Positions 48,686 to 53,518 of a DNA stretch of 64,000 nucleotides are shown one piece after another. Each line of letters opens with the position of its first letter. Position 1 is the first letter of the stretch. The translations under genes were made by a program, and so were the position numbers. This DNA comes from an uncultured Candidatus Saccharibacteria bacterium (lineage in GTDB: Bacteria; Patescibacteriota; Minisyncoccia; Phycocordibacterales; XYD1-FULL-46-19). The notes under the pieces are model-generated. The model was not told the origin of the DNA. It made no database searches and saw only the letters and a list, made by a program, of their open reading frames with translations. Location of the stretch: the NCBI GenBank assembly GCA_964355855.1, contig CAYHFD010000002.1, positions 419-64,418 of the forward strand, in the 5' to 3' direction.

Positions 48686-51247
48686 TTCGTATATAATAGG
48701 CGATGTCAGATATGTTAAATAAAATAAACCATAAAACCAGGCGTAAGAAGTAGCGTGTATTTAGACTGTGCTACATTCTGCCGCCCGGAGGGCGGTTTAT
48801 TTTTTCAGAAAGGCTGGAACATTGAAAATTGAATCCTGTCACGGTATCGACTTTTCCGCCTATAGGATAGGCGGAAGGGGTCTTTTCAAATATCGGAGGC
48901 AGAATAGGTAGAAACATTGTGTTTTGAAAGTAAAGTTAGATAGCAATCAAAAAAGAAAGTGGTTTTTAAATTTCCTAATAGGAAATTAAGAGTATATGGT
49001 GGATGCCTTGACACAAAATGGCGATGAAGGACGCGGCTTGGCGGCGATACGCTTCGGGGAGGTGCCTAGCAACCTTTGATCCGGAGATGTCCGAATGGGG
49101 AAACCCGATTGAGCAAAGCTCAATTACTCGTTTTTTTACGAGAGCTAACCCAGGGAAGTGAAACATCTCAGTACCTGGAGGAATAGAGACTAAATGAACT
49201 TCCTAGTTTGGAGGTAAGTAGCGCAAGCTCCGTGCTTCCAAACTATGAGGTTCTTAGCATTCCCTTAGTAGCGGCGAGCGAACAGGGAGAAGCCCAAACC
49301 CATAAGTTTACTTGTGGGGGTTGTAAGGCACGAACGTAGATTTCTAGGGAAGTCAAAAAATATTTTGTTAGCCGAAGCTGCTGGGAAGCAGCGCCACAGA
49401 AGGTAACGGCCCTGTAGGCGAAAATAAAATATCTTCCTTGTTCGTGTTCTTGAGTACCTCGAGGAACGACAGCCTTGAGGGAATCCGCCGGAACTAACCG
49501 GCAAGGCTAAATACATTTTGTGATCGATAGTGAACTAGTACCGTGAGGGAAAGGTGAAAAGCAGCCCGATAAGGGCGTTGAAATAGACCTGAAACCATAT
49601 ACTTACAAGGAGTGGGAGCCGAGCACTACAGTGTGCATTATTTTGTGAGTTGAAAAATGATTTGACCGAGCCGTCGATGAAATTGCCGCCCAAGGCGTGG
49701 CGATTTGCAAAGGGTTGAGTCACCAGGGATGAACCATAACTGTCGACGTTATCTCATCCCATCATTTTTCAGTTCACAATTTAAATTGTGCATAGTGTAG
49801 TGCTCGGTGACCGCGTGCCTATTGAAGAATGAGCCAACGAGTTTATGCGTACTGCAGGCTAAGCCCTTCTGGGGTGGAGCCACAGGGAAACCAAGTGTGA
49901 ATAGCGCATTTGTAGTCCGCATAAGACCCGAAGCCAGGTGAGCTTGCCATGGGCAGGATGAACCCCACAGAAATGTGGGGGGAGGTCCGAACCGGTTAGC
50001 CGTGCAATACTATCGGATGACCTGTGGTAGGGAGTGAAAAGCTAATCGAACCTGGTAATAGCTGGTTCTCTCCGAAATATCTTTAGGGGTAGCGTCAGAT
50101 GTTCCTTCTGGGGGTAGAGCACTGGAAGAGTCGAACAGGGAGAAATCTCGTCGATTCTATCAAACTCCGAATACCAGAAACTAAAAGTCTGGCAGTTAGA
50201 CTCCGGGCGCTAAGGTCCGGTGGTCGAAAGGGAAACAGCCCTGATCTCAATCTAAGGTCCCTAAATTCATGCTAAGTGCACTTAAGGAGGTGAAATTTCT
50301 CCGACAATGAGGAGGTTGGCTTAGAAGCAGCCATCCTTTAAAGAAAGCGTAATAGCTCACTCATTCAGAGATCTTGCGCCGCAAATAATCGGGGCTAAGC
50401 ATGGTACCGAAGGTGAGGATGTCATCTATTTTCGAATAGGTGGCGTGGTAGGAGAGCGTTCCAATCCGCGGTGAAGCAGTGTCGTGAGGCACTGTGGAGC
50501 GTTTGGAAGTGAGAATGTTGGCACAAGTAACCGCAAGGCAGGTGAGATCCCTGCCCGCCGAAAGATCAAGGTTTCCTTGGCAATGGTGATCAGCCAAGGG
50601 TTAGTCGGGCCTAAGCCGATGGTGAAAACCGCAGGCGATGGACACACGGTTAATATTCCGTGACTTCTGTAATGTGCGATGGGGAGACGGAGTGCAGTAT
50701 GTCAAGCGTATTATTGGATTTATGTTCGGGCCGTTAGGAAGTACTCTAGGTAAATCCGGAGTACATTATTCCAAGCGGAGCGAAAACGCGGTGGTCTCCA
50801 CCGTGAATTTGACAAAGCGCGCTTCCAAGAAAAGCCTCTAAGCTTCAACATTATAGAAACCGTACCGCAAACCGACACAGGTGATCAGGTCGAGAAGACC
50901 AAGGCGAACGGGTGATTGCTCCTCAAGGAACTCGGCAAAAAAGCGGCCGTAAGTTTGCAATAAGGCCTTCCTAACCCCGCGCAAGCGGGACGGACGCAGC
51001 TAAAGAATCCCTGGCGACTGTTTATCAAAAACACAGCTCCCTGCGAACTCGTAAGAGTATGTATAGGGGGTGACACCTGACCAATGCCCGAAGGTCAAAT
51101 AAGGTGGGTGTGCGCATCACACTGCGTGTGATACTGATATATCGATATATCAAAATTTCGAAATATCAGCATCGTGCTTGGCGTGATGCGTATGCTTGCT
51201 CTATAAGCCCGGGTGAATGTCGGCGATAACTATAATCGTCCTAAGGT

Positions 51248-51509
51248 TCCGTGTTCGATTTTAAAATCGAACACGGAACGGATTGGGGCGATGTATAGCG
51301 AGTGTGATAAACAGAAGACAAAATATACCAATCAAAAGCTACCTCAGCGCGCGGTAACGCGTGCATGATCCACATGGCACGAAGAGACTATACGCCATGC
51401 TCCCTAAAACATTTGCTTTGCAAATGTTCGGGCGAACATTTTGTTTACAAAATGTTTTAGCCAGCAAAAATTAGGGATGAAGATATAGTCCTTATGTGAG
51501 GAATATAAG
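51248..51509 (+). other. Intron-like insertion 1 in the 23S (262 nt, no ORF) at E. coli position L1931 in helix 69
   Basis: Flanks reconstitute CCTAAGGT|AGCGAAATTCC. The 5' exon ends in U, the insert ends in G, and the insert has internal palindromes. Confidence 0.6.
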
Positions 51510-52183
51510 AGCGAAATTCCTTGTCTGGTAAGTTCAGACGTGCACGAATGGTGTAACGACTGGGGAACTGTCTCGAGGAGTAGCCCGGTGAAAATGCAAT
51601 GGGGGTGAAGATGCCCTCTACCTGCAGCTAGACGAAAAGACCCCAGGAGCTTTACTGCAGCTTGATATTGAGCTTACGTTTTTACTGCGTAGCATAGGTG
51701 GGAGACTTTGAAGCGTCGCTTTCGGGTGATGTGGAGTCAACAGTGAAATACCACTCTGTAAAAATGTATGTTCTAACCACGGTGTAAACCATCGTGAGAC
51801 AGTATCTGGTAGGTAGTTTTAGTGGGGCGCTATCCTCCTAAAAAGTAACGGAGGAGTCTATTAAGGTCCTCTAGGCGCGAATGGAAACCGTGCCGATAGT
51901 GTAATGGCATAAGAGGGCTTGACTGCAAGACGTACATGTCAAGCAGATGCGAAAGCAGAGCATAGTGAACCGACGGTCCGCCTTAGAAACGGCCGAAGAT
52001 CAACGGATAAAAGCTACCCTGGGGATAACAGGCTGGTACCGCCCAAGCGTCCATAGCGACGGCGGTGTTCGGCACCTCGATGTCGGCTCATCTTATCCTG
52101 GGGCTGGAGAAGGTCCCAAGGGTATGGCTGTTCGCCATTTAAAAAGATACGCGAGCTGGGTTCAAACCGTACTGAGACTAATT

Positions 52184-52743
52184 TTAAAAAATTGGTAGAA
52201 GTGCAGTTTGAATCCCTTCGAGTTTTTCGTTTATGAAATTAAGTATAGGAACCCCGCCGGCGCGTAAAGCTATGGCGGGTGAGACAACCATAATCACGGC
52301 GGCGTAATGTAGCAATATATTACGAAATGCTGACTTATATCGGTGAAACCCTATTTGACGCGGAAATATGCGGAACTAACGCAGACAAATGCGGAAAAGG
52401 GCAATACCGAGGGAAATCGTGAACTTTATTGAGGAAATTGATCTTTTTTTTGGGGTAGTGTAGTGGGCACATTTCTGGGTTTAATCCCAAGTAAGCTAAT
52501 GACAATCGGGCCTAAAATAGTTTAGATCTTTCAAGGTCTAAGCCGTACGGAAACCGTCACGTTGGCAAGCGAAAAAGAGCGAGTTCAACTTTCGCACCCC
52601 TTATGTTTTTGAAGCAATCGAGATGATTGCTTCTTCAATAAAGTTCACGATACCCGTAGAGACTGAACGTTAGCCAACCGGGCACATGAGAGTACCGGTT
52701 GAAGATACAGTCCGATGCACTTAGTAATAAGTGAAAACATGCG
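52184..52743 (+). other. Intron-like insertion 2 in the 23S (560 nt, no ORF) in the peptidyl-transferase region, at the I-CreI/I-CeuI-type homing site (~E. coli 2593-2597)
   Basis: Flanks reconstitute ...CCGTAC T|GAGACAGGTTGGTCTCCTATC. The 5' exon ends in U and the insert ends in G. Confidence 0.6.
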
Positions 52744-52804
52744 TGAGACAGGTTGGTCTCCTATCTGCTGCAGGCGTTGATACTTGAGAGGATTTGTCTC
52801 TAGT

Positions 52805-53177
52805 AAGAAATTGCTACTTGACGAAGAAATTTGTCATGACAATTTGGCTAATAACGGTGAAGCCTTCATAAATATATCTGGCAACTGGATACTATAATGG
52901 TTCTAGTCCGCCCAATAGTGTATAATGACTTGAGGACCAGATAATTTTTAAGGTAATACCGTGGGAAGTCGCCGAAGCACCATCTTGGTGCTCGGTTGAC
53001 CCCGTAACGACTTGTTTTGAGCTTCATTTTAATGAGGCAAGATAAACGGACTTATACAATGGCGAATCATTTCTTTGAAAATGACGGCTTGTATGGGTAA
53101 TATGCCAACCCTTCCTTCGTTTTACAACGAAAAAGGTGAAGATATAGTCTGTGCTCCTAGAAATAGGGGAATAAACG
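52805..53177 (+). other. Intron-like insertion 3 in the 23S (373 nt, no ORF) inside the sarcin-ricin loop, between ~U2656 and A2657 by my alignment
   Basis: Flanks reconstitute CTCTAGT|ACGAGAGGACC. The 5' exon ends in U and the insert ends in G. Confidence 0.55.
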
Positions 53178-53518
53178 ACGAGAGGACCGAGATGAACTGA
53201 CCTCTGGTCTGCCTGCTGTCCCGCCCGGGGCATCGCAGGGTAGCTATGTCGGGAATGGATAACCGCTGAAAGCATCTAAGCGGGAAGCCAACCTCAAGAT
53301 TAGGTATCGTTATGAGACCCGTGAGAGATGATCACGTTGATAGGCACTAGGTGTAAGCACAGCAATGTGTTCAGCCGTGGTGTACTAATTCGTCCATTCC
53401 TATTAGGAAATTTGGAAATCAATCCCAGTTGGAAAGCAAAAATGCTTCCAACGGGGCAAGTTTTTTGATTGTTCCAAAATACAATGTTGTTTCTATATAA
53501 AATAAATTGGGATTATGT

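Follow-up and report, generated by a model that had tools for sequence, protein, structure and literature searches.

Three probable introns of group I origin without open reading frames interrupt the 23S rRNA gene of a Parcubacteria-like bacterium, one of them lacking P4–P6

We analyzed a stretch of 64,000 nucleotides (nt) of metagenomic DNA (the window) whose 23S rRNA gene is interrupted by three inserts. These are very probably introns of group I origin without open reading frames (ORFs), and they follow, in Escherichia coli (Ec) numbering, U1931, U2593 and U2656; we refer to them as I1, I2 and I3. Introns at positions 1931, 2593 and 2657 of the 23S genes of the Candidate Phyla Radiation (CPR), many of them ORF-less, are ordinary and were catalogued in 2024; because 2657 is already in that catalogue (PMC11270868), the intron in the sarcin–ricin loop is not new. 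The new point is the architecture of I1 alone, which lacks the P4–P6 domain and shares this state with 11 other short introns at the same site, together called minis below. The exon separating I1 from I2 is 82–89% identical to the 23S genes of metagenome-assembled genomes (MAGs) labelled Parcubacteria, Kaiserbacteria, Zambryskibacteria and Adlerbacteria, and we read the host from its rRNA as a Parcubacteria-like member of the Patescibacteria/CPR. One of the proteins encoded in the window is also present on contigs from Hainich groundwater (Hain_H52_02um).

48976..53405, + strand: 23S rRNA gene with introns (RF02541, 2099 bits; alignment to E. coli rrlH)
51248..51509, + strand: putative intron I1, 262 nt, after Ec U1931 (alignment to rrlH; core helices)
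52171..52741, + strand: putative intron I2, 571 nt, after Ec U2593 (RF00028, 34.8 bits, E = 1.1e-6)
52742..52804, + strand: exon separating I2 from I3, 63 nt, Ec 2594–2656 (alignment to rrlH)
52805..53177, + strand: putative intron I3, 373 nt, after Ec U2656 in the sarcin–ricin loop (RF00028, 33.0 bits, E = 4.1e-6)
53521..53626, + strand: 5S rRNA gene, separated by 115 nt from the 23S gene upstream (Rfam RF00001, 72.3 bits)

The 23S region is covered at 2099 bits by the Rfam model LSU_rRNA_bacteria (RF02541), and the gene measures 4430 nt, or 3224 nt once the three introns are taken out. We set the insert boundaries from a MAFFT alignment of the gene to E. coli rrlH. The excess over the E. coli gene is 1526 nt, of which the introns make up 1206 nt; the remaining ~350 nt form four extra segments at Ec ~232, ~289, ~540–552 and ~1863, three of which fold as long hairpins. 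With I1 taken out, the conserved sequence CCTAAGGT–AGCGAAATTCC is regained exactly (the dash marks the junction), as is CTCTAGT–ACGAGAGGACC with I3 taken out, this junction having a 1-nt A ambiguity; removal of I2 regains the conserved AACCGT–CGTGAGACAG. Each intron ends in a G (51509, 52741 and 53177 for I1, I2 and I3, respectively). The hexamer TGAGAC occurs twice, at 52172–52177, immediately within the 5′ end of I2, and at 52744–52749, among the first nucleotides of the 3′ exon, so that sequence alone leaves the I2 junction ambiguous. An exon ending in U and an intron ending in G result only if the junction is placed after U2593, and the guide CACG-G-CGG specifies the same junction. The ligated junctions expected after splicing are the following.

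Position 1931, in RNA letters: CCUAAGGU-AGCGAAAUUCC; the DNA reads ...AATCGTCCTAAGGT-AGCGAAATTCCTTGTCTGG...
Position 2593, in RNA letters: AACCGU-CGUGAGACAG
Position 2656, in RNA letters: CUCUAGU-ACGAGAGGACC

An earlier note on this DNA had described three inserts of 262, 560 and 373 nt whose removal restores conserved exons exactly, each following an exon U and ending in G. For I1 and I3 the lengths, the restored exons and the terminal bases all hold at the junctions it proposed. Its middle junction, after CGTACT (Ec 2596), is incorrect: the insert would end in T, the site is L2593, the length is 571 nt (the boundaries proposed in the note give 570), and the U and G convention holds for I2 only at the U2593 junction. 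The note had equated the total excess with the inserts at ~1.2 kb, a figure that fits the inserts and falls short of the total. It had rightly named L1931 as the first site while placing it in helix 69, which we take to span 1906–1924 in E. coli, with 1931 just 3′ of it. The third insert does lie inside the sarcin–ricin loop, as claimed, after Ec U2656 by the rrlH alignment; the note knew of no intron at this site, which already appears among the frequent group I sites of the CPR, as ‘2657’ or 23IS14 (PMC11270868).

At its gathering threshold, Rfam returns only the large-subunit and 5S rRNAs, and the introns surface in E-value mode. There, Intron_gpI (RF00028) matches I2 with 34.8 bits (E = 1e-6), I3 with 33.0 bits (E = 4e-6) and I1 weakly, with 14.7 bits (E = 1.2), while no group II family is among the matches to E = 10 over 51200–53250. 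All three share the J8/7–P7 core GAAGATA(T/C)AGTC, P3, P8, a P7 with a bulged nucleotide beside a G-C pair, a terminal G and a guide complementary to the exons. The P3/P7 pseudoknot with P8, the guanosine-binding pair of P7 and the conserved J8/7 are thus found in I1, I2 and I3 alike. The U·G wobble at the 5′ splice site is present in I2 and I3 and replaced by U-A in I1; likewise, P4-P5-P6 lies between the P3 5′ strand and P7 in I2 and I3 and is absent from I1. By their sequences, I2 and I3 are predicted to be complete ribozymes, each with an internal guide sequence (IGS), the U·G pair, P3–P9 and the terminal G. Fold energies lie far below those of shuffled sequences for I1 (z = -6.3; -85.5 kcal/mol) and I3 (z = -4.95). 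The earlier note had called the inserts ORF-less group I-type introns and proposed, among other checks, covariance models and a comparison of insertion sites among related 23S genes. These two bear out its reading: in addition to the matches above, many further CPR genomes have homologous introns at each of these sites. Its remark that 262 nt is very small for a group I intron was also apt, as I1 owes its size to the absence of the whole P4–P6 domain and is, accordingly, an incomplete group I intron.

None of the three inserts wholly contains an ORF of at least 60 aa, their short ORFs have no Pfam match, and a tblastn search with 87 ORF segments of related introns found no homing-endonuclease remnant in them. 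The tblastn matches that did appear were rejected as remnants, being only frames that cross conserved ribozyme sequence. I1, I2 and I3 therefore do not encode the LAGLIDADG or other endonuclease that marks a mobile intron, and neither the introns nor the rest of the window holds a candidate maturase or endonuclease ORF.

The anatomy of I1 is as follows.

51248..51277, + strand: 5′ hairpin from the first intron nucleotide (minimum free energy (MFE) fold; 10 of 11 pairs compensatory among the minis)
51280..51283 with 51368–51371, + strand: helix X, GGAT with ATCC (covaries as GGAC/GTCC, GGAT/ATCC, TAAC/GTTA, AATT/AATT)
51338..51344, + strand: guide GCTACCT (GCT with AGC of the 3′ exon, P10; ACCT with AGGT of the 5′ exon, P1)
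51345..51367, + strand: P2 hairpin with a GTAA (GNRA) loop (9 of 9 pairs covary)
51373..51399, + strand: P3, CATGGC/GCCATG (98.5% paired, 4 covarying pairs among the minis)
51401..51477, + strand: P8, TCCCTAA/TTAGGGA, and two extra hairpins (minis alignment; fold)
51478..51491, + strand: J8/7 (TGAAGATA) and P7 3′ strand (TAGTCC) (invariant among the minis)
51492..51509, + strand: P9 (TTAT/ATAA) and terminal G 51509 (minis alignment)

The P3 helix of I1 encloses just the linker ACGA, the AGAG-P7 5′ strand (GACTA) and TAC, leaving no place for P4–P6. Its guide is the exact complement of the ligated exons AGGT–AGC, with an A facing the splice-site U. In relatives at L1931, collected from genome loci and one metagenome scan, we find the same arrangement repeatedly. 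The minis comprise 12 diverged L1931 introns of 178–264 nt from different MAGs and metagenomes (besides I1, loci L012, L030, L044, L059, L065, L074, L079, L118, L122, L137 and L243). In these introns the P3 5′ strand is followed by 4–7 nt and then by AGAG-P7, without P4–P6; the IGS, P2, P3, P7, P8, J8/7 and P9 are retained. When 11 of the minis are aligned, 93.3% of the cells in the proposed structure are paired and compensatory change is seen in 32 of its 44 pairs. The covariation score is 0.66, compared with 0.24 for shuffles and reached by none of 500 of them, and slid controls give 30–44% paired. No variation is seen in J8/7, in J7/3 or in the guanosine-binding pair of P7 with its bulged A, and a terminal G is found in 11 of the 12 (10 of the 11 in the alignment).

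The minis differ from the full-length L1931 relatives, which measure 243 nt or more, in the base opposite the splice-site U. This base is A in all 12 minis, whose guide reads G(C/T)TACCT, and G in all 18 full-length relatives, whose GCTGCCT-type guide is complementary to AGGT–AGC, including a U·G wobble. The full-length introns open with a 5′ hairpin, GGAC-TGGGAC, an A-rich stretch, the guide GCTGCCT, P2 with a GNRA loop, and GTCC; they continue with P3, P4-P5-P6 (ATGCTGG...TCAGCAGG...), AGAG-P7, P3′, P8, GAAGATAT-P7′ and P9. Their last nucleotide is G in about half and A in the others. We also observe that the L1931 introns of L243, L192, L136, L167, L143, L205, L213 and L133 end in ...CGAAA, with A as the last nucleotide, before the exon AGCGAAATTCC, and that this 3′ end mimics the exon start AGCGAAA.

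To count occupancy of site 1931, we used 33 genome loci that had been picked via the L2656 pattern, without regard to site 1931. Twelve have no intron there and 21 have one, of which 9 are minis; L065 is a tenth mini of the same genome set, found outside that count. A covariance model of the minis, trimmed to run from the guide sequence to the 3′ end, scores the minis at 88–106 bits, full-length relatives mostly at 37–60 bits and the 3′ halves of other group I introns no higher than 42 bits; the scores of the latter two overlap somewhat. It revealed the divergent L065 and no further high-scoring minis. In a neighbor-joining tree of the I1 family, which carries no support values, the minis are scattered among full-length forms, a placement that conflicts with the ACGA linker that some share. 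The differing linkers between P3 and P7 (ACGR, TCYG, TCAYATG and CTACA) hint that P4–P6 may have been lost more than once.

Two other pairings were considered for I1. A P1 formed by exon GGT at the base of the 5′ hairpin was dropped in favor of the 7-nt guide complementary to AGGT–AGC. A pairing of intron AGGAC with exon GTCCT was dropped as well, because AGGAC covaries with the internal GTCC (GGAT/ATCC, TAAC/GTTA). As a separate observation, I1 and its relatives carry tandem GGAC-like repeats (GGAC-T-GGGAC; 51280–51288 in I1), the first of which pairs with the internal GTCC as helix X. The second repeat does not vary, and exon GTCCT is a potential pairing partner for it.

The sarcin–ricin loop intron I3 is organized as a complete group I intron with additional hairpins between P7 and P3′.

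52805..52816, + strand: P1, exon TAGT plus AA, loop GAAA, guide TTGCTA, U·G at the splice site (sequence; family)
52819-36, + strand: P2 (family alignment)
52844-48 (5′ strand) and 53104-08 (3′ strand), + strand: P3 (family alignment)
52854-59/52957-62, + strand: P4; 52863-66/52950-53: P5 (family alignment)
52963-53003, + strand: P6, a 41-nt hairpin (in relatives, a ~474-nt segment with a LAGLIDADG ORF at the same place)
53006-12/53146-50, + strand: P7; 53014-47: P7.1; 53050-98: P7.2 (family alignment)
53110-36, + strand: P8, followed by J8/7, P9.0, P9 (53154-69) and terminal G 53177 (family alignment)

We scanned for the I3 family with the pattern GATAYAGTC-N12-42-ACGAGAGGACC, using one genome per species. 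The pattern occurs in at least 120 species genomes, and nearly all of the matches listed are Patescibacteria. Both junctions could be resolved in 82 L2656 loci, with intron lengths of 279–889 nt. Together with I3 these give 83 sequences, all of which have the terminal G and 78 of which have the guide TTGCTA, which pairs with exon TAGT and the first two intron bases with a U·G at the splice site. About 60 of the resolved introns carry an ORF of ~159 aa; one truncated ORF (102 aa) that was tested matches LAGLIDADG_1 with E = 1e-8. The ORF is located in P6, a segment of 474 nt in most of the introns, 31–41 nt in those that are ORF-less and 41 nt in I3. An alignment of 81 L2656 sequences displays plentiful compensatory change in P2, P3, P9, P9.0, P7.1 and P7.2, with the five central of the seven P2 positions paired in 81 of 81 and represented by up to six pair types, whereas P4, P6 and P7 are invariant. 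A single-sequence fold of I3 recovers most of the helices. We take the P7.1 and P7.2 hairpins between P7 and P3′ to be typical of subgroup IA in the Michel–Westhof classification. The P3′ strand of I3 as placed by Rfam was rejected, since the family alignment puts P7.1 and P7.2 before the true strand, GCCAA. Several contigs with an L2656 intron (L021, L062, L081, L088, L093, L105, L108 and L110) come from MAGs labelled Elusimicrobiota, Gammaproteobacteria, Trueperaceae, Mycoplasmatales or Nanoarchaeota; these labels probably reflect mis-binning or automatic mislabelling of CPR rRNA contigs.

The L2593 intron I2 is the longest of the three.

52203..52212, + strand: upstream exon-binding element GCAGTTTGAA, pairing with exon TTCAAAC (covaries with the exon in relatives)
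52295..52303, + strand: guide CACGGCGGC (CACG with CGTG of the 3′ exon, P10; G with U2593, wobble; CGG with exon CCG, P1)
52329..52713, + strand: core (Rfam alignment)
52329-34/52669-74, + strand: P3; 52340-45/52405-10: P4 (Rfam alignment)
52411-52655, + strand: P6, a perfect stem of 15 bp whose tip bears an insert of ~200 nt
52659-65/52708-13, + strand: P7; 52676-52700: P8 (Rfam alignment)
52718..52741, + strand: P9 (CACTTA GTAA TAAGTG), P9.0 and terminal G 52741 (sequence)

The ~200-nt insert at the tip of P6 has no detectable homology. An L2593 intron is present in 43 of 77 fetched loci; all 43 have the terminal G, and 33 have the guide CACGGCGG, complementary to CCGT–CGTG with a U·G wobble. 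A second exon-binding element lies near the 5′ end of L2593 introns (L011, L030, L045, L059, L079, L096, L122 and others), where it pairs with 7–10 nt of the upstream exon and covaries with it (CAAAC/GTTTG, CAGAC/GTCTG). This element, GCAGTTTGAA in I2, was rejected as the guide: in relatives it often places an A opposite U-1, and the conserved CACGGCGG is the P1/P10 guide.

These features suggest how the introns would be excised by the standard two-step group I transesterification. In each, the guide would form P1 with the 5′ exon where it ends and P10 with the 3′ exon where it begins. A free guanosine held in P7 would attack after the terminal U of the exon, after which the terminal G of the intron would occupy P7 and the exons would be ligated. 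Splicing would thereby restore the region just 3′ of helix 69, a strand of the peptidyl-transferase ring and the sarcin–ricin loop. I2 and I3 have most likely lost a LAGLIDADG gene that relatives at the same sites still hold; in I3, a 41-nt hairpin stands where most relatives have the gene seated in P6. Under the homing-cycle model, loss of the endonuclease gene after fixation would fit their ORF-less state. I1 would still be excised via its P3–P9 active site, probably slowly or with host factors. The U·G wobble at the splice site is read by J4/5 of P4–P6. We propose that, with this receptor lost, selection for the G would have been relaxed and a U-A pair would strengthen the 4-bp P1. On this basis we suggest, tentatively, that the minis may be a natural and maintained class of group I introns excised in vivo without P4–P6 and with U-A in place of U·G. 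They would use only the P3–P9 half and a lineage-specific peripheral domain.

A number of points weigh against this proposal. None of I1–I3 attains the Rfam gathering score of 50 bits, and we infer splicing of all three from their sequences. I1 has no P4–P6 domain, its splice-site pair is U-A and not U·G, and helix X, despite its covariation, makes a pseudoknot with P1. Engineered deletion of P4–P6 costs ~1000-fold in rate (Ikawa et al. 2000, as quoted in PMC2879505), and a title cited in PMC11270868 records a group I intron in 23S rRNA that is left unspliced. Four other inserted segments are already tolerated by the present 23S gene. The unspliced intron of that title presumably sits at 1931, and the site of I1 may thus accept an insert that is not removed. 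The serious alternative for I1 is thus that it and the other minis are dead, unspliced remnants at 1931, kept in mature 23S rRNA as an expansion segment, with I2 and I3 being genuine introns. We nonetheless consider this unlikely. The 12 minis have diverged in every helix with pairing kept, and J8/7, the guanosine-binding pair of P7 with its bulged A, J7/3 and, in all but one, the terminal G have been preserved along with a 7-nt guide complementary to both exons. A mere structural spacer would need neither guide, guanosine-binding site nor terminal G. Alternatively, I1 could be excised but non-autonomous, with the P4–P6 scaffold supplied in trans by a protein, by rRNA or ribosomal proteins, or by the P4–P6 of another intron. 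Trans-assembly of group I domains reportedly has an in vitro precedent in the work of Doudna and Cech from 1995, and each mini in a genome locus shares its 23S gene with at least one complete group I intron. That co-occurrence, however, is a sampling bias, because the loci were so chosen; the 64-kb window, moreover, holds no free-standing P4–P6-like motif and no candidate for a maturase or endonuclease. Help in trans therefore appears somewhat unlikely.

The remaining explanations concern all three inserts. They could be intervening sequences (IVSs) of the Salmonella or Leptospira type, cut by RNase III without ligation to leave a fragmented 23S rRNA, and the same gene does have an IVS-like perfect hairpin of 175 nt at the classical helix-25 site. 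We regard this as very improbable, in agreement with the earlier note: in the MFE folds of I1 and I3 the two ends of the insert do not pair with each other, leaving no end-to-end stem of the IVS type, and all three inserts, including I2, which we judged on these features, have group I cores and guides. They also lie within rRNA segments that are universally conserved and either single-stranded or functional; breaks there, such as one in the sarcin–ricin loop, would be expected to inactivate the ribosome. That the inserts are chimeras or misassemblies is hardly credible, even for a contig from a groundwater metagenome assembly (Hain_H52), given that the junctions are seamless and that many independent assemblies, made from samples of other sites, have homologous introns at precisely these three positions. 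The anatomy of the introns, their homology, their covariation and their distribution over insertion sites are, in contrast to their splicing, matters of direct observation.

The introns at L1931 and L2593 in Thermotoga, Simkania and chloroplasts (I-CreI type) presumably occupy the same positions, in conserved sequence of domains IV and V, and spread by the same LAGLIDADG-driven homing; the studies of Nesbo and Doolittle (2003) and Everett (1999), whose titles are cited in PMC11270868, are said to deal with such bacterial or organellar large-subunit introns. As described, they are complete introns, usually with an endonuclease gene, whereas ours are ORF-less and I1 lacks P4–P6. Within the CPR, Tsurumaki, Sato, Saito and Kanai (2024, J Bacteriol) found insertions in 82% of 23S genes and group I introns concentrated at 1917, 1931, 1952, 2593, 2604 and 2657; they report LAGLIDADG_1 there and count 222 introns of 23S genes without an ORF (PMC11270868). 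They state that site 23IS14 (2657) has not been seen in other bacteria and, citing an earlier study, that CPR insertions are removed from transcripts (PMC11270868). I1–I3 agree with these introns in their CPR host, their sites 23IS7 (1931), 23IS12 (2593) and 23IS14 (2657), their group I-like nature and the frequent lack of an ORF. The survey sorted insertions by Rfam model, without intron architectures (PMC11270868), and our guess is that it would have counted minis of the I1 type as uncharacterised short insertions. In our own set, rough BLAST chaining of CPR MAG 23S genes (L005–L124) to E. coli shows recurrent insertions near 270, 1854, 1917 and 2262, and further ones near 2500, 2504, 2532, 2585 and 2604–2630; some of these genes contain several kilobases of introns.

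To our knowledge, P4–P6 is regarded as one half of the core common to all group I introns. Our literature search for group I introns without it returned only an engineered T4 td ribozyme and tiny fungal rRNA introns, none of them bacterial. The td ribozyme without P4–P6 (Ikawa, Shiraishi and Inoue 2000) is active and ~1000-fold slower, as quoted in PMC2879505. I1 and the 11 other minis resemble this ‘minimal catalytic domain’ in keeping P3-P7(-P8-P9) and lacking P4–P6. The td construct is artificial, whereas the minis are natural, conserved in many genomes and known as sequences; unlike the construct, they have an extra peripheral domain (5′ hairpin, helix X and long L1) and a U-A splice-site pair. 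Among fungi, ‘degenerate’ putative group I introns of 56–81 nt occur in the small-subunit rRNA genes of Phialophora, Arthonia and Porpidia (Harris and Rogers 2011, PMC3160393), and one such mini-intron is reported to splice in vitro (PMC3160393). Like the minis, they occur naturally in rRNA genes, descend from group I introns and are missing core helices, P4–P6 included. They belong, however, to subgroup IC1 of eukaryotic nuclear genomes and retain only P1, P7 and P10, whereas the CPR minis are bacterial, 178–264 nt long, and keep the whole P3–P9 half and P2.

The four extra segments of the 23S gene are distinct from the introns. The largest, at 49620–49806 (~175 nt, Ec 540–552), lies in helix 25 and forms one long near-perfect stem (-101 kcal/mol over 206 nt with its flanks). 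IVSs excised by RNase III classically occur in this helix, so the 23S rRNA may be fragmented or carry an expansion segment there. The segments at 49199–49258 (60 nt after Ec 232) and 51108–51177 (70 nt after Ec 1863) form extended hairpins, and that at 49317–49365 (49 nt after Ec 289) folds weakly (-7.6 kcal/mol over 63 nt). The 64-kb window contains no 16S rRNA or tRNA gene, and with only the 23S and 5S genes linked in it, 115 nt apart, the rRNA operon appears to be split. Elsewhere, 19786–23325 (+ strand) encodes a class I aminoacyl-tRNA synthetase of 1179 aa (tRNA-synt_1, Anticodon_1) with a complete His_Phos_1 domain (residues 536–699, E = 1e-30) set into the middle of its catalytic domain. 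An ORF at 42982–43647 (+ strand) corresponds to a gene that, on the identical contig L002, hits Y1_Tnp (IS200-type transposase); the genes for ribosomal proteins L10/L12 and the 23S gene follow a few kilobases downstream.

Standard covariance models miss the minis, and surveys of rRNA introns may therefore undercount them. If the minis are true splicers, they would provide a natural test both of the ‘minimal catalytic domain’ idea and of the purpose of the U·G wobble, and they would offer compact ribozyme scaffolds.

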